DNA of 63,099 nucleotides, filler included, from a candidate division NPL-UPA2 bacterium Unc8 (GTDB lineage: Bacteria > NPL-UPA2): NCBI GenBank assembly GCA_003574845.1. It is 4 parts of 4 records of this genome, joined end to end, with 100 filler letters (N's around TTAATTAATTAA, not from the genome) between each part and the next. Parts side by side here need not be neighbours in the genome. Positions count along the whole stretch, not along the records: positions 1 to 26,317 come from NDHY01000011.1; 3 more parts are not named here. One strand, 5' to 3'. Of this stretch, positions 1 to 21,114 are shown one piece after another. Below the pieces are notes generated by a model. The model was not told the origin of the DNA. It worked only from the letters and a program-made list of their open reading frames with translations, and made no database searches. The translations under genes were made by a program, and so were the position numbers. Each line of letters begins with the position of its first letter. The first letter of the stretch is position 1.

Positions 1-33
1 TTCAGTTTTGAAACTTATTTTTTGATTGCTCAT
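1..33 (-). CDS. 5' end of an unidentified CDS running off the window (MSNQKISFKTE...)
   Basis: ATG at 33 (minus) preceded by an AGAGGA SD-like motif; frame open to window edge. Confidence 0.5.
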   Translation of the reverse strand, partial: MSNQKISFKTE

Positions 34-130
34 TATATCCTCTTTTAATAAACCCGCCGTTTCGCTTAACTTATTTCTATGCGAATTGAATGCATAATAT
101 TGACCTTTTGCTGTGTATTATGCGAATTGA

Positions 131-212
131 CGGAGGGCGAGGGACTCGAACCCCCATGGGCTTTCACCCGCCTGATTTCAAGTCAGGTGCCTTACCATTA
201 GACTAGCCCTCC
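131..212 (-). tRNA. tRNA-Ser(TGA), long variable arm, CCA not encoded (followed by TCA)
   Basis: Minus strand GGAGGGC...GCCCTCC-G acceptor; anticodon arm CCTGA-CTTGAAA-TCAGG; GGGT-GAAA-GCCC variable arm; TTCGAGT T loop. Confidence 0.95.
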
Positions 213-1483
213 AATATCTTATCCGCTCCTCCCATATAAGTCCTCAGGGGTTCCGGGATAGTAACGCTTCCGTCTGCCTGCTGGTAAGTTTCAAGGAAAG
301 CGACAACCATTCGTGCCAGGGCAACTCCTGAGCCGTTAAGAGTGTGAACATATTTTAATTTTCCGCCGCCTTCAGGTCGGTAGCGGATGCCTGCCCGCAT
401 GGCTTGAAAATCGGAAAAACTACTACAGGAAGAGACTTCCAGATACCGCCCTTCTCCGGCAGCCCAGACCTCAATATCATAACATCTGCTCGCCGCAAAG
501 CTCAATTCTGCGGTGCAGAGCCTGACAACCCGATAATGTAGTCCTAATAATTGTAACACTTCTTCAGCATCCTTAAGCAGCAATTCCAACTCATCTTCCG
601 AGGTCTCCGGTTTAACAAATTTGACGAGCTCTATCTTATCAAATTGATGTATTCGTATTAGCCCCTTTGTTTCCTTGCCATAAGAACCGGCTTCCCTGCG
701 AAAGCACGGCGTATAAGCACAGTAATAAAGGGGGAGTTCTGAGTCGCTTAAAACCTCGCCGACGTGTATGTTGGTGAGCGGAACCTCAGCGGTTGGGATG
801 AGAAAAAGGTCATCTTTTTCACAGATATACATATCATCTTCAAGAAGGGGGAGTTGCCCGGTTCCCGTCAGGCAGCCTCTTTTAACAATGAAAGGTGGAG
901 AGACTTCAATATAATTATGCTTTGTCGTATGTAAGTCCAGCATAAAGTTAATCAGCGCTCTTTCCAGCTTTGCCCCCAGGCCGTAGTAAAGAGCAAAGCC
1001 ACTTCCAGAGATTTTTGCCACACGCTCAAAATCAATAATTTTAAGGGACTTTGCAATTTCATAATGGGAGCGGGGCGCAAAATCAAACCTTGGCGGCTCT
1101 CCCCAGGAGCGCACCTCAACATTATCTTCGGAGCCATCACCTACGGGGACGGATTGGTGAGGTATGTTTGGGATAAGAATTGCAAGCTCTTCCTGCTCTC
1201 TTACTATTTCCTTTATGTTATTTTCCAATTCCTTGAACTCTTGAGAGGCTACTCTTATCTCAGCTATTTTTTTGTCTGCATCGGGAGCAGATGCTTGTTT
1301 GAGCTTCCCAACCTCTTCAGAGATAAGGTTACGCTGACGCCTTTGTTCTTCCACCTGCAGGAGCAGTTTTTTCTTTTCCTCATCCAGAACAAGAAGCTTA
1401 TCTATATCAACTTTCATTCCCCGATCACGCAGAGATTTCTTGACCACCTCCACATTCTCTCTGATGAATTTAATATCCAGCAT
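203..1483 (-). CDS. serS: Serine--tRNA ligase
   Basis: MLDIKFIREN start, coiled-coil arm, LIPTAEVP, FRREAGSYG, EVSSCS, HTLNGSGVA motifs; stop TAG lies inside tRNA-Ser. Confidence 0.98.
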   Translation of the reverse strand: MLDIKFIRENVEVVKKSLRDRGMKVDIDKLLVLDEEKKKLLLQVEEQRRQRNLISEEVGKLKQASAPDADKKIAEIRVASQEFKELENNIKEIVREQEELAILIPNIPHQSVPVGDGSEDNVEVRSWGEPPRFDFAPRSHYEIAKSLKIIDFERVAKISGSGFALYYGLGAKLERALINFMLDLHTTKHNYIEVSPPFIVKRGCLTGTGQLPLLEDDMYICEKDDLFLIPTAEVPLTNIHVGEVLSDSELPLYYCAYTPCFRREAGSYGKETKGLIRIHQFDKIELVKFVKPETSEDELELLLKDAEEVLQLLGLHYRVVRLCTAELSFAASRCYDIEVWAAGEGRYLEVSSCSSFSDFQAMRAGIRYRPEGGGKLKYVHTLNGSGVALARMVVAFLETYQQADGSVTIPEPLRTYMGGADKILEG

Positions 1484-1522
1484 GGTTACATTTTCCTCTC
1501 CAGGACTAACAGCCTACAGCCT

Positions 1523-2971
1523 TTATCCTTTAATTACTCCAAGGGGTTTCATTTTAGCTACTCTGCGGGAAATGCCTGCCTGGTGAACAACATCAATAAC
1601 ATCATTTATATCTTTATAAGCTTCAGGGAGCTCCTCGGCCAGGGTATTTCTCCCTTCTGTTCTTACTACAACTCCTTTTTTCTCCATCTCCTGATGAATC
1701 GCTCTTCCCTTTGCAGCTTTAATTGCTCTTGTGCGACTCATCACCCGACCGGCGCCATGACAGGTGCTGCCAAAGGTTTCAGTCATCGCCACCTCTGTTC
1801 CCACAAGAAGGTATGACGCTCTTCCCATATCCCCGGGAATAATCACCGGCTGACCACAGGCTTTATATCTTACCGGAAGCTCGGGGTGCCCTGGTGGGAA
1901 TGCTCGGGTTGCTCCCTTGCGATGGATAAAGAGTTTCTTTTTGGTTCCACCAACGGTATGTTCTTCAAATTTCCCGATGTTATGCGCTACATCATAAATT
2001 AAGCCCATCCCCAACTCACCCGGGGTGGCATCAAATACATTTGCAAAAATTTCCCTTGTCAGATGGAGCAGATATTGCCGATTAGCCCAGGCATAGTTTG
2101 CCGCCGCCGCCATTGCGGCAAAATAATCTTTTCCTTCGGGAGAATTAATGGGAACACAGGCGAGTTGTCTGTCCGGAAGTTCAATCCCATACTTATGAAC
2201 TGCTCCTCCGATTATCCGCAAATAGTCATCGCAGACCTGATAGCCAAGCCCCCGTGAGCCTGAATGAATCATTACTGTTATTGCCCCTTTTTCAATGCCA
2301 AAAACGCGGGCAATCTCAGGTTCATAAATTTCTTCCACAATTTGCACTTCAAGAAAATGATTACCCGAGCCAAGAGTCCCTTGCTGCTTGGCGCCTCTTT
2401 CCATTGCTCGCTGACTCACTTTTGTTGAATCCGCCCCGGCAAGCCGTCCTTTCTCCTCGGTGAACTCAATGTCCTCAGCAGTTCCATAGCCTCTTTCTAC
2501 CATCCATTGCGCTCCCTTATGCAGCACTTCTGCTCCTTCCCGGCGGTTTAATTTTAACTTTCCGCGTGAGCCAACGCCAGAGGGAATGCGGGAAAAGAGA
2601 GTCTCTATTAGCAATCTCATCTTATCTTTTATATCTTTTTCCCGCAAATTAGTCCGCAGCATCCGAACCCCACAATTTATGTCGTACCCGATTCCCCCGG
2701 GAGAGATGACTCCATCTTCAATATCAACCGCTGCCACCCCACCAATAGCAAAACCATAGCCCCAGTGAATGTCGGGCATAGCCAGAGAGTAGTTGACGAT
2801 GCCGGGGAGGTGAGCTACATTGACAACCTGTTTCAGCGGCTCTTCCTCCATTGCTTGCAATAGTTTCTCATTGGCATAGACCAGTCCCGGCACGCGCATA
2901 CCAGGAGCAAGGCTTTCCGGAATCCGCCAGCGATAATCATCAATTTTTTCTAAAGATTTTTTTTCTGCCAT
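1523..2971 (-). CDS. rtcB: RtcB RNA-splicing/repair ligase (long, archaeal-like form)
   Basis: MPDIHWGYGFAIGG, GYDINCGVR, GTLGSGNHFLE, HSGSRGLG, HRKGATRA, STCHGAGR, EELPEAYK motifs. Confidence 0.97.
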   Translation of the reverse strand: MAEKKSLEKIDDYRWRIPESLAPGMRVPGLVYANEKLLQAMEEEPLKQVVNVAHLPGIVNYSLAMPDIHWGYGFAIGGVAAVDIEDGVISPGGIGYDINCGVRMLRTNLREKDIKDKMRLLIETLFSRIPSGVGSRGKLKLNRREGAEVLHKGAQWMVERGYGTAEDIEFTEEKGRLAGADSTKVSQRAMERGAKQQGTLGSGNHFLEVQIVEEIYEPEIARVFGIEKGAITVMIHSGSRGLGYQVCDDYLRIIGGAVHKYGIELPDRQLACVPINSPEGKDYFAAMAAAANYAWANRQYLLHLTREIFANVFDATPGELGMGLIYDVAHNIGKFEEHTVGGTKKKLFIHRKGATRAFPPGHPELPVRYKACGQPVIIPGDMGRASYLLVGTEVAMTETFGSTCHGAGRVMSRTRAIKAAKGRAIHQEMEKKGVVVRTEGRNTLAEELPEAYKDINDVIDVVHQAGISRRVAKMKPLGVIKG

Positions 2972-2995
2972 TTTACTTATCGCCTCAGGAACAGC

Positions 2996-3412
2996 TTAAA
3001 CATCAAATATCACTTCAGTTTGATAGCCTGCTGTATTTTTTTCTATCCTCAGATTATGATAAGTAGCTGCTTTAATTTCGGTTTTTAATTTGTGGCGCTT
3101 CGGGTTGAACTTCTCACCCGATACCTCAACTGAAAGGCATTTGCTATTCACTTTTATAATCTTGAATTTGGCAGGAAGAAACTCTTTGCTCACAAAGAGG
3201 TAAATAAGTTCATTCAAGAAGCAAACAAGCAGTTCTTCTATGTCGGCTGCCTTGACGAACAGTGAATGTTTCAGCTTAGAATCAATTGCGCAAGACTCAA
3301 CCATTATGTCAAGCATAGCATAGGCAGCATTGATGAAAATGTCTTCTTTCCTCTTGCCAGAGATTCGAATACCTATGTCTGCGGTATGTTCAATGAGCTC
3401 ATAATTTTTCAC
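2996..3412 (-). CDS. Archease (RtcB activator)
   Basis: N-terminal EHTADIG and C-terminal EIKAATYH...FDV motifs; directly upstream of rtcB; start overlaps gyrA stop (GTGA). Confidence 0.95.
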
Positions 3413-5901
3413 TTCTTGCTTTTCTTTTTTATTATTATTTTGTTACTCTTTTTCTGGCCATTATTCTTATTCTCTTCTTCTTCTTTGATTACTCTCACTA
3501 CGCCTACCACCCGATCATTGGGCTGCATTTTAATCAGTCTTACCCCGCGAGTATTGCGGCTCAGGATGCGGCGAGGGGTAGGTATCCTGATAGCTTTTCC
3601 TTGAGAACTAATAAGAATAACTTCATCGTCAATGCTTACTCCCTCAGTGCCAACAACGCGTCCATTGCGCTCTGAGGTATTGATATTAATTAAGCCTTTC
3701 CCCCCGCGATGCTGCAATCTGTATTCTGAGAACAAACTACGTTTTCCATATCCATTTTCAGTTACAGAAAGAATAGTGCCTTCTTCAGAGGCAATTTCCA
3801 TGCTGACGACCTTATCGTCAGAGGCAAGCCGAATCCCCCTCACTCCCCGCGCTGTTCGACCAACCACCCGCACCTCCTCTTCGGGAAATCTGATAGCTTT
3901 TCCTGAGGCTGTAGCGATGAAGAGCTTTTCGTTTCCAGAGGTCAGTTTAACATTCACCAGGTAATCGCCATCATCAAGATTAATGGCAATTATTCCGCCT
4001 TTCCTGATATGTCCATAGAGGGCAAGATTGACTCTTTTAATTACTGCCTGCTCTGTAACCATTACAATAAAACGCCCCTCATCAAAATTTCTTATTGGTA
4101 GGAGCGCAGTTACTTTTTCATCTGGATTAAGTTTGAGAAGATTAACAACTGCCATCCCCTTAGAAACTCTTCCTGCCTGAGGCAGCTCATACACCTTAAG
4201 ACGATGTACCCTTCCCTTATCGGTAAAAAACAGAAGGTTGTCATGAGTTGAGGCAATGAAAAGACCTGTGATAAAATCCTCATCCTTTGTAACAACTCCG
4301 ATTACTCCCGTCCCGCCACGTTGCTGCTGTCGATAGGTGGATACAGGAAGACGCTTGACATACCCGGCATGACTGATTGTAATTACCATATTTTCTTCGG
4401 CAATAAGGTCTTCAATTGAAAAATCCGCTCTTTCTTCCTGAATATCAGTCCTTCTCTTATCACCATATTTCTTTTTTACTTCTAAAAGCTCGTCTTTGAT
4501 AATGTCAAGGATTTGACGCGGGCTGGCAAGAATTCCCTGCAACCTCGCCATCTTTTTAATTAGCTCAATGTACTCATCGTTTATCTTCTGACGCTCCAGG
4601 CCGGTGAGACGCTGGAGTTTCATATCAAGTATTGCCTGCGCCTGCTCGCTGGTCAGTCTAAACTTGAGAATGAGCTTTTCGCGAGCCTCATCAACAGCAG
4701 CAGACTCTTTAATTGCCTTAACTACAGCGTCAAGATTGTCCAGCGCAATTCTCAGTCCTTCCAGGAGATGCGCTCTCTTTTCAGCCCTGGAGAGTTCATA
4801 TTGAGTGCGCCGCCGCACGACTTCCTGTCGGTGTTTAAGATACAGTTCAAGGCATTCTTTAAGATTCAGCAGGCGAGGACGACCATCACAGATAGCCAGC
4901 ATATTAACACCGATAAACGACTGCATCTGCGTATGTTTATACAGCTTATTGAGCACAATCTCACCATTCTCACCGCGACGAAGCTCTATCACAATGCGCA
5001 TGCCATCCTTGTCCGATTCATCTCGCAGTGCTGAAATTCCCTCAATTTTCTTTTCTTTCATCAGGGAAGCAATGTCCATCAGAAGATTTGCTTTATTTAC
5101 CTGATATGGAATTTCGGTAACGATGATTCTTTCTTTTCCGCCTTCTATCTCATCTATTGAAGCACGTCCCCAGAGCTTAATCTGCCCTTTTCCAGTTGCA
5201 TAGGCATCTTTTATTCCACTTTTTCCAAAGATGATACCGCCGGCAGGAAAGTCAGGCCCGGTAACTACTTCCCCTAACTCATCAATGCTCACTTCAGGCT
5301 CATCAATTAATCTCACCACTCCATCTACAACCTCGGATAGGTTATGAGGAGGGATGTTGGTAGCCACGCCCACGGCAATTCCAGAGGTGCCGTTCACCAG
5401 CAAATTTGGAATACGCGCAGGAAGAAATTTTGGCTCCTGAAGTGTGCCATCAAAGTTAGGGGTAAAATCAACCGTCTCCATCTCTATGTCAGCAAGGAGT
5501 GCCTCGCTCAACGGAGACATTCTCACCTCTGTATAACGCATTGCTGCGGCAGCATCTCCATCTACAGAGCCAAAGTTCCCTTGACCATCAATCATCGGAT
5601 AACGACAGGAAAAATTCTGTGCCATTCTTACCATAGAGTCATAGACGGCAGTATCCCCATGTGGATGATACTTTCCAAGAACCTCCCCAACCACACGCGC
5701 CGATTTCTTATAGGCACGATTACTCGCCATCCCTAAATCCTGCATTGCATACAGTATTCGCCGATGCACTGGCTTAAGCCCGTCTCGGACATCAGGAAGC
5801 GCTCTTCCCACGATGACACTCATTGCATAATCAAGATAAGACGCTTTCATCTCATCTTCAATGTAAACCGGCACTACTTTAGATTTTTCTTGTATAGCCA
5901 T
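3409..5901 (-). CDS. gyrA: DNA gyrase subunit A
   Basis: [30 protein letters not shown] catalytic Tyr, GyrA-box-like QQRGGTG, C-terminal pinwheel repeats. Confidence 0.98.
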
Positions 5902-19373: not shown

Positions 19374-19449
19374 TTACCCCGCTTCTTTTGAATTTGACTG
19401 AATAGTGAAGTTCATGGTATCATAATACGATTAAATTTCAGAAATATCA

Positions 19450-20997
19450 ATGGAAAAATTCTACATTACTACGGCGATTGACTATCCATCAGGACCACCG
19501 CATCTTGGCCATGCTTATGAAAAAATCTGTGCTGATGCAGTTGCCCGCTGGCAGCGCCTGAAGAAAAAGGATGTATTCTTCCTCACCGGGACGGATGAGC
19601 ATGGACAGAAGATAGCAAAGTATGCTCAACGTGCCGGGAAAAATCCGAAAGAGTTTGTTGATGAGACCTCGCAAAAGTTCATCCAGTTGTGCAGGAAGCT
19701 TAGCATTTCTAATGATGACTTCGTCAGAACCACTGAAGAACGACACAAGGATGTCGCCCGAAACATCTTCATGAAAATCTTTGAAAAAGGAGATATTTAT
19801 AAAGGGTATTATGAAGGGCTTTACTGCACTGATTGCGAGACATTTTACTTAGAAAAAGAGCTGAATGGAGAAAATTGTCCTGTCCATAAAGCAAAGGTGG
19901 AAAAAGTAAAAGAAGAAGGCTATTTCTTTAGAGCGGGACAATATCGGGAGCGTGTGCAAAGACACATCATTGAAAATCCTGACTTCCTCCTTCCCGGGGT
20001 AAGACGCAATGAGGTGCTAAAAAGGCTTCAGGGGGAGGTGAAAGACCTGAGTATCTCCCGCTCCAGAGTCAGGTGGGGAGTTTCTCTTCCCATAGACCAG
20101 AAGCACGTTATCTATGTCTGGTTTGACGCACTTATCAACTATATTTCAGCCCTTAATTATCCTGATGGAGAGAAATTTAGTAAATACTGGCCGGCAAGTT
20201 TGCACCTAATCGGCAAAGATATTCTCTGGTTTCACGCTTTTATTTGGCCGGCGATACTTATGGCAGCCGACATAGAGCTTCCACAGAGGATGTTCGTGCA
20301 CGGATTTATTAATGTGGGAAAAGAGAAGTTAAGTAAGAGTAAGGGAATAACCATAGACCCGCTGCGGTTGATTGAGATTTATGGAAGTGATGCCTTGCGT
20401 TACTTTCTCTTGAGAGAAGTCTCCTATGGCAAGGACGGAGATTTTTCCGAGGACGCTTTGATAAGAAGAATAAACAGTGACCTTGCCAATGACCTTGGTA
20501 ACTTTGTTTACAGGGTATTAACGATGGTAGCACGATACTGGGATGAGGAGGTTCCATCCCCGGGAAATGAGGAAGACATTGACAGGACATTGAGAGAGCT
20601 CTGCCTGAAGACAGTGTCTGAAGTTGATAAGAAAATTGATAACCTGCAGTTTTCTGAGGCTTTAGCAAGAATCTGGAAACTAATTCAGGCGGCGAATGGA
20701 TACATTGAGGAAACCGCTCCCTGGGCGCTCGCTAAAAACTCTGCCGATAGAGCCCGACTCGGGACAGTGCTTTACTGGCAATTGGAAGCGTTGCGCTTTA
20801 TTGCCACACTCCTCTTTTCCTTCATTCCCGCATCAGCGCTTAAGATATGGCAGCAACTTGGCATGGATGAAGAGCTGATGACTGATGGGCTGGACGGAAT
20901 TAAAAAATGGGGGAAGCTAAAACCCGGTCGTAAAGTCAAGAGAGGAGAACCTCTCTTTCCAAGAATAGAGGCTGCGCCCGTAGCTCAGCCAGGATAG
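19450..20997 (+). CDS. metG: Methionine--tRNA ligase (short form, no C-terminal tRNA-binding domain)
   Basis: YITTAIDY, HLGH, GTDEHG, CTDC..CPVH knuckle, YVWFDAL, KLSKS, LFPRIE; stop lies inside tRNA-Arg. Confidence 0.97.
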   Translation: MEKFYITTAIDYPSGPPHLGHAYEKICADAVARWQRLKKKDVFFLTGTDEHGQKIAKYAQRAGKNPKEFVDETSQKFIQLCRKLSISNDDFVRTTEERHKDVARNIFMKIFEKGDIYKGYYEGLYCTDCETFYLEKELNGENCPVHKAKVEKVKEEGYFFRAGQYRERVQRHIIENPDFLLPGVRRNEVLKRLQGEVKDLSISRSRVRWGVSLPIDQKHVIYVWFDALINYISALNYPDGEKFSKYWPASLHLIGKDILWFHAFIWPAILMAADIELPQRMFVHGFINVGKEKLSKSKGITIDPLRLIEIYGSDALRYFLLREVSYGKDGDFSEDALIRRINSDLANDLGNFVYRVLTMVARYWDEEVPSPGNEEDIDRTLRELCLKTVSEVDKKIDNLQFSEALARIWKLIQAANGYIEETAPWALAKNSADRARLGTVLYWQLEALRFIATLLFSFIPASALKIWQQLGMDEELMTDGLDGIKKWGKLKPGRKVKRGEPLFPRIEAAPVAQPG

Positions 20998-21048
20998 AGC
21001 AGCGGTTTCCTAAACCGCGTGTCAGAGGTTCAAATCCTCTCGGGCGTA
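20974..21048 (+). tRNA. tRNA-Arg(CCT), CCA not encoded
   Basis: GCGCCCG...CGGGCGT-A acceptor; GCGGT-TTCCTAA-ACCGC anticodon arm; AGAGG-TTCAAAT-CCTCT T arm. Confidence 0.95.
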
Positions 21049-21114
21049 TGTTAATTAAGCAGTAGATAGTCAATAGTAAATAGTGAGTGGTAGTAATTGA
21101 TAAAGGAGGAGAAT

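Follow-up and report, generated by a model that had tools for sequence, protein, structure and literature searches.

In the compact genomes of animal mitochondria, tRNAs punctuate the transcripts and overlap the ends of coding regions, much as at the bacterial locus described here; the genomes there belong to organelles that have an RNase P of their own, and the stops are completed by polyadenylation. In bacteria, the available text of Mukai 2021 (PMC8124441) reports selB open reading frames (ORFs) that contain the tRNA-Sec gene selC or end inside it, the stop codon lying inside the tRNA in Dyella, in Luteibacter and in one Nitrospirae lineage. The accessible sections of that paper present it as the first to report a tRNA nested within an ORF of bacteria and cite, in the discussion, the tRNA/protein gene overlaps of animal mitochondria. 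For E. coli secG-leuU, the part of the study by Mohanty and Kushner considered here (PMC2241853) describes a single RNase P cut that separates mRNA and tRNA, and a half-life of under 30 s for the secG mRNA after this separation. Beyond these two papers, no report of a synthetase ORF overlapping or ending in a tRNA gene was found in the literature, and general counts of CDS/tRNA overlaps in prokaryotes were likewise not found in the literature searched. The locus presented here belongs to a bacterium of the NPL-UPA2 group, whose first described genome has a size of about 1 Mb according to the available text of its genome paper (PMC6305446), in which the word "overlap" was not found.

The window, i.e. 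the whole stretch of DNA that was analysed, comprises 63,099 nucleotides of the candidate division NPL-UPA2 bacterium Unc8, filler between its four parts included. Its serS gene, coding for seryl-tRNA synthetase (SerRS), occupies 203..1483 on the minus strand and yields a protein of 426 aa (ORF list and translation), which a profile search assigns to TIGR00414 (E 2.3e-150, residues 1-417 matched) and which ends in ...YMGGADKILEG. The 3' end of serS, read along the minus strand, is ...GGA GCG GAT AAG ATA TTG GAG GGC TAG, with the stop codon at 205..203. On the same strand, 131..212 holds an 82-nt tRNA-Ser(UGA), found as a full-length match to Rfam RF00005 (model positions 1-71) with 58.9 bits against a cut-off of 29; ARAGORN also calls a tRNA-Ser with anticodon tga, at 213..129, its ends being 1-2 nt wider than those of Rfam. 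In this tRNA the 7-bp acceptor stem is perfectly paired, the variable arm is long and the discriminator is G131; CCA is not encoded. According to the sequence and the Rfam alignment, serS and tRNA-Ser share the 10 nt at 203..212 (minus strand), so that positions 1-10 of the tRNA comprise the final base of the codon for Leu424, followed by Glu425, Gly426 and TAG. Position +1 of the tRNA (G212) is thus the third base of the Leu424 codon, and the serS stop is U8-A9-G10 of the tRNA, read in the same direction. The earlier note had placed the serS stop within the cognate tRNA-Ser, with 203-212 as tRNA positions 1-10, and the sequence, Rfam and ARAGORN bear this out; that SerRS acts on this tRNA is assigned by family only (TIGR00414; anticodon UGA). 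TAG is an ordinary stop in this host, where it ends 11 of 37 ORFs of at least 250 aa. No T-box leader was found upstream of serS, the tRNA being the sole Rfam match in 1..3000 at E values up to 1. The gene order on the minus strand (1523-5901 onward) is gyrA, a PRK00407-family small protein, an RtcB-family RNA ligase, serS and tRNA-Ser, with gaps of -4, 24 and 39 nt along the run from gyrA to serS; an RtcB-family RNA-repair ligase hence lies directly upstream of the serS-tRNA-Ser unit.

A junction of this kind could be an assembly or consensus error, in which the assembler has collapsed a genuine stop and spacer. An allele carrying a 28-nt palindrome at this site does exist, and such a palindrome can be skipped by assemblers or polymerases. 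The spacer-less junction is, however, present not only in the window. Contig L081, 99.975% identical to the window over 3984 nt, has the same serS/tRNA-Ser junction and differs by a single indel, located in the downstream spacer and away from the junction. When Logan contigs of four runs (X2, X3, X4 and X5) were compared with window positions 1..2000, the junction was unchanged in a 15.6-kb contig of the DNA run X2 and in a separately assembled 3.1-kb contig of the RNA run X4, and the gene caller gives 426-aa SerRS products on several contigs. The spacer-bearing allele moreover carries linked differences at 218 and 224, which points to two haplotypes. The spacer-less junction is real and no assembly error, an origin that we regard as extremely improbable.

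The second allele was found in X3 (DNA) and X5 (RNA), two runs of one sample, which have 28 extra letters between 213 and 214 (minus strand). Reading by hand shows a TAG straight after Ile423, the last two letters of which open the insert. Counted by hand, the insert and its flanks fold into a hairpin whose stem has 13 pairs and one mismatch and whose loop has 5 nt; it ends at the base that precedes tRNA-Ser +1. The two linked changes, C>T at 218 and at 224 on the plus strand, are synonymous; the strain is more than 99% identical to the window, and its SerRS has 423 aa. Support at the protein level comes from P0124 (423 aa, ...GGADKI), a member of the same 90% SerRS cluster from an 8066-nt contig that is equally long as the X3 contig. 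Within that cluster, P0001 is the window SerRS with R131 and the end ...ILEG, P0002 has K131 and ...ILEG, and P0123 has K131 and ...ISEG, which corresponds to the overlap with C for T at tRNA position -1; P0122, about 90% identical, ends in ...ITVPA. The overlap allele thus occurs on two protein backgrounds, K131 and R131, and outside the window it is found in three of the five compared assemblies and runs (L081, X2 and X4, against X3 and X5). The serS/tRNA-Ser overlap is a polymorphism, i.e. an indel variant within a species. As to the concern of the earlier note that a stop might be missing just upstream of the tRNA, the junction itself holds in L081, X2 and X4, but a strain of more than 99% identity does stop before 212.

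The direction of the change is read differently from two kinds of sequence comparison. Outgroups by gene order would favour a loss of the 28-nt hairpin by deletion, whereas rooting by residue 131, which is K in the outgroups P0122 and P0003, would favour a gain of the hairpin and hence an overlap that is older in the species. The two linked differences beside the indel may hint at a recombination patch. A repeated mobile element as identity of the hairpin received no support from motif counts over the 63 kb searched: a 10-nt motif from the hairpin has no exact copy in the window, 11 matches against 9.7 expected when one mismatch is allowed, and two stray matches in 160 loci.

On the other side of the tRNA, window positions 1-130, the DNA 3' of tRNA-Ser, vary between strains. 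The X2 and X3 contigs diverge from the window at about 67 and about 60, respectively; in all four runs positions 1-40 also lie on a short contig with a 5-18x higher depth and a different continuation, and directly at the tRNA-Ser 3' end there is a direct repeat of 12 nt (78-89 and 119-130). This region looks like a hotspot of integration or rearrangement. Beyond the window start, L081 carries at 3960-4104 an ORF of about 40 codons with a good ribosome-binding site, followed by a second ORF of which only the beginning lies on the contig; its first 17 residues bear a tentative resemblance to the N-terminus of DNA methyltransferases.

To see how the overlap is distributed, serS loci of relatives were compared, in genome, metagenome and phylum sets that partly share organisms. 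Among 166 other serS loci there is not one that overlaps a tRNA. The overlap is absent from all 80 genome loci (SerRS 55-68% identical); in three of these a tRNA-Ser(UGA) follows serS in the same orientation, separated by 70, 15 and 78 nt, the first two distances being those of L001 and L031. Nor was it found in 79 other metagenome loci, two of which have a flank too short to judge, and here tRNA-Ser(UGA) follows serS in two cases, with spacers of 78 and 39 nt. Across 12 genomes of the phylum of G001, none of the eight complete serS 3' flanks overlaps a tRNA and one has tRNA-Ser(UGA) downstream, namely that of G001 itself, the source of L001. For three relatives known as proteins only, the SerRS tails are ...ITVPA (90% identity), ...ISKE (85%) and ...LEMRN (81%). 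Since the three frames of the tRNA-Ser 5' end give ...EG, ...GGLV or an 11-residue tail and cannot encode these ends, the respective serS genes must stop outside such a tRNA. The usual SerRS tail in the clade, ...ISKG, is equal in length to the ...ILEG of the window; hence the enzyme should be unaffected, being neither unusually extended nor shortened. The overlap and its stop position are accordingly not conserved across related species, the outcome of the comparison with related genomes suggested in the earlier note: no relative shares the overlap, and a strain of more than 99% identity carries the 28-nt allele instead.

The stop codon itself is a regular part of the tRNA. In seven of seven relatives with this tRNA type the 5' end of tRNA-Ser(UGA) reads GGAGGG(C/T)TAG, both where the tRNA follows serS (L001, L031) and where it heads a tRNA cluster (L163-L167). 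As the TAG is found in the tRNA whether or not serS is nearby, it must predate the overlap. The tRNA-Ser(UGA) of the phylum (window, L001, L031, L163-L167) has a 4-bp D stem and a short D loop; the more distant ones of L036 and L151 have U8-G9-G10, i.e. TGG at positions 8-10. Among the distinct tRNAs of the fetched loci, about 14-15 of 36 carry TAG at these positions. With TAG being this common there, a frame that enters a tRNA will stop early as a rule. Frames of at least 100 codons that end inside a tRNA are nevertheless rare, with two cases in 94 distinct contexts (180 sources), both of them in the window.

How the tRNA is transcribed was approached by a consensus scan. The nearest promoter-like site on the same strand, TTGAGC-18-TATGAT at 476..505 (minus strand), lies inside serS, 264 nt before tRNA-Ser +1; within the 260 nt upstream of the tRNA there is no promoter-like site, and neither the last 480 nt of serS nor the tRNA holds a terminator-like site. 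Neither serS allele leaves room for a promoter before the tRNA. In L163, L164 and L166, inspection by eye reveals, a short way before the tRNA, a TTGACA box that resembles a promoter element and is accompanied by a -10-like hexamer; for L164, which served as control, the scan returns TTGACA-17-TAGTAT, with its end 6 nt ahead of +1 of the same tRNA. Contigs from the RNA libraries span the junction (X4 at 74..2000, X5 at 1..901), which is no proof of a single transcript, as DNA carry-over is possible; the depths of the RNA runs and the stretches without cover were taken from contigs and are uninformative on expression or RNA ends. Most likely, tRNA-Ser is the 3' end of the serS message.

In the predicted fold of the window allele (ViennaRNA minimum free energy, MFE, and pair probabilities), the 3' trailer at 122..131 (minus strand) pairs with serS codons 420-423. 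Predicted pairs join 216-218 with 129-131 and 221-226 with 122-127, lengthening the acceptor stem, and this putative leader-trailer helix (216-226/122-131) has pair probabilities of 0.6-0.97. Both sites that differ between the alleles are paired with the trailer in this fold, 218 with a probability of 0.89 and 224 with 0.97, and each C>T change would break one predicted pair. Selection acting on the structure of the RNA could explain why both linked differences coincide with predicted leader-trailer pairs.

Taken together, we favour, at a probability of roughly 60%, the reading that the overlap is a tolerated indel within a species, in a lineage that packs its genes tightly and transcribes tRNAs together with the synthetase genes ahead of them. 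In the 28-nt allele serS stops after Ile423, with the hairpin separating this stop from tRNA-Ser. In the window allele, which does not have the 28 nt, the frame adds Leu-Glu-Gly and then stops at U8-A9-G10. In this reading the tRNA lacks its own promoter and would arise as the 3' part of the serS transcript, and the cut by RNase P at G212 would end the productive life of that message. Both RNase P cleavage and trans-translation, on which the proposed cut and rescue steps draw, are established, and secG-leuU offers a precedent. Because every serS mRNA that bears the stop carries nucleotides 1-10 of the tRNA, a cut at +1 leaves a non-stop message, which would end two bases into the Leu424 codon. 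SerRS would then be supplied by ribosomes that reach the stop ahead of the cut, and may also come from rescued non-stop complexes, with a product ending at or next to Ile423. Such a product would be about the same as the normal 423-aa SerRS of the other allele, so that only tagging by tmRNA would cost enzyme.

The window is indeed densely packed: by a crude measure ORFs cover 91%, and the gaps have a median of 22 nt; this density, together with an older overlap of metG and tRNA-Arg, indicates that such fusions are tolerated here. For serS, the simplest account of the cognate pairing is that it is a legacy of an older adjacency of serS and tRNA-Ser. Several observations speak against the tolerated indel. 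Rooting by residue 131 would make the overlap the older state, and both linked differences beside the indel lie on predicted leader-trailer pairs. The overlap allele is not rare and has persisted and diversified (K131 and R131, the ISEG variant), and both overlaps of the window are found at synthetase genes, which is unexpected if fusions are random.

In this second case, metG, coding for methionyl-tRNA synthetase (MetRS), occupies 19450..20997 on the plus strand (515 aa; TIGR00398, E 5.2e-154, residues 4-507 matched) and its product ends in ...LFPRIEAAPVAQPG. A tRNA-Arg(CCU) follows at 20974..21048 on the same strand (63.5 bits in Rfam; anticodon cct in ARAGORN). The sequence gives an overlap of 24 nt at 20974..20997 (plus strand), in which the metG stop TAG is positions 22-24 of the tRNA, so that the last 7-8 codons and the stop lie within the tRNA and its first 21 nt encode the tail APVAQPG; +1 of the tRNA is the first base of metG codon ~508. 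The tRNA is non-cognate for MetRS. In genome G013, whose MetRS is 90% identical, the junction is identical and the DNA beyond the tRNA is unrelated. A tRNA-encoded tail, APVAQ(P/S/L)G, is present in four of seven MetRS relatives at 85-90% identity and lacking in three; among the matches listed, those at 63% identity or below all end near ...LFPRI, and no tRNA follows metG in nine other genomes of the phylum. Conservation of an overlap across species is thus found at the non-cognate pair metG/tRNA-Arg, and judged by these sequence comparisons this overlap is older and better conserved than that at serS. A promoter-like site (TTGACT-18-TATCAT, 10/12) precedes metG at 19394..19423 on the plus strand, and the consensus scan found none inside metG on that strand. 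The MFE fold of the metG/tRNA-Arg region (20935-21085) pairs upstream coding sequence with the T arm and shows no cloverleaf (z -3.6), whereas the cloverleaf is retained in the fold of the G013 region (z -0.5); no inference is drawn from this contrast between predicted folds. A genome-wide habit of tRNA-ORF fusion was considered and rejected, as in G013, the closest genome, an ORF is fused to only one of the 27 tRNAs that could be evaluated, three more lying at contig ends.

These two overlaps could be taken as a design of the lineage that does not depend on cognate pairing, in which the tRNA replaces a terminator, RNase P sets the 3' end and the lifetime of the synthetase mRNA, and synthetase output is tied to the overall capacity for tRNA processing. 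Of the four tRNA genes in the window two are joined to synthetase ORFs, which is seen nowhere else among the 94 contexts, the metG fusion is conserved at 86-90% identity with an identical junction in G013, and the promoter-like site lies before metG with none inside; all three findings would fit this explanation. With one fused tRNA in the 27 of G013 that could be evaluated, three of the seven close MetRS relatives without the tRNA-encoded tail, a serS fusion that is polymorphic and two cases that are too few for statistics, we nevertheless hold such a design to be unlikely. A bolder reading is that in this candidate phylum of small genomes essential synthetase genes have ceded their stops and terminators to tRNAs, metG long ago and serS in a change that is still segregating, that every release of a tRNA by RNase P leaves a non-stop synthetase mRNA, and that rescue ties synthetase supply to the flux of tRNA processing; it strikes us as quite unlikely.

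A different proposal is a feedback specific to the cognate pair, as put forward in the earlier note. Maturation of tRNA-Ser and completion of SerRS would then be mutually exclusive on each transcript and selection would keep the overlap; fast tRNA processing would lower SerRS through tagging by tmRNA, and heavy translation would delay the tRNA. The geometry does force a competition if serS and tRNA-Ser are co-transcribed, the overlap allele has been retained across several samples and on both protein backgrounds, and the same model has been proposed for selB/selC in the available text of PMC8124441. Against it stand the polymorphism of the overlap in a population of more than 99% identity, its absence from all other relatives examined, and the conserved sibling overlap, which joins MetRS to a non-cognate tRNA-Arg. 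The fact that the conserved fusion is non-cognate argues against cognate feedback as the reason why such fusions persist. Of the claim of competition and feedback, the geometric part and the logic shared with the selB/selC paper therefore stand, and the polymorphism, the lack of overlap in other relatives and the metG case weigh against the rest. Feedback follows logically from the arrangement, but as an evolved trait it is unsupported, and we consider a selected coupler of this type very unlikely.

Whichever explanation applies, the tolerated indel that we prefer included, the loci have consequences of their own. If the tRNA is cut from the serS or metG message, an essential enzyme would routinely be translated from mRNAs that lose their stop, and the loci would be natural substrates for a race between termination, tRNA 5' maturation and ribosome rescue. 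The host is an uncultured groundwater bacterium, and as both serS alleles come from the same groundwater studies, these hold a built-in control; if a coupling between synthetase and tRNA were true, the two serS alleles would amount to an on/off experiment set up by nature. If the overlap is a tolerated accident, it would still mean that such fusions are viable in free-living bacteria, beyond organelles and phages. For annotation, gene callers and tRNA finders are each correct here, and pipelines that forbid an overlap of CDS and tRNA would truncate or drop one of the two.

Compared to the known systems, the serS case differs from that of mitochondria in that it concerns a bacterial genome and a complete TAG. 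With secG-leuU, as far as the text consulted describes it (PMC2241853), it shares an mRNA that has a tRNA directly behind it, and the lack of a promoter or terminator between ORF and tRNA is likewise seen at serS, there with zero spacer. The secG stop, however, lies upstream of the cut, with a 14-nt spacer, and no non-stop message arises, so that by the same source secG-leuU resembles the 28-nt allele more than the allele of the window. In selB/selC, as given in the available text of PMC8124441, ORF and tRNA also overlap on the same strand and the protein binds that very tRNA. Its model, in which tRNA processing yields a non-stop mRNA and protein and tRNA become alternatives, is bioinformatic only, as is the analysis here, and the idea of a non-stop feedback is therefore one already proposed for selB/selC in that text. 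Differences concern the partner, an elongation factor there and a synthetase here, and the position of the stop, which in selB falls at tRNA positions 46-48 or beyond the tRNA and in serS at positions 8-10. Finally, the selB/selC trait is conserved across species in the account available, whereas the serS overlap is polymorphic within one.
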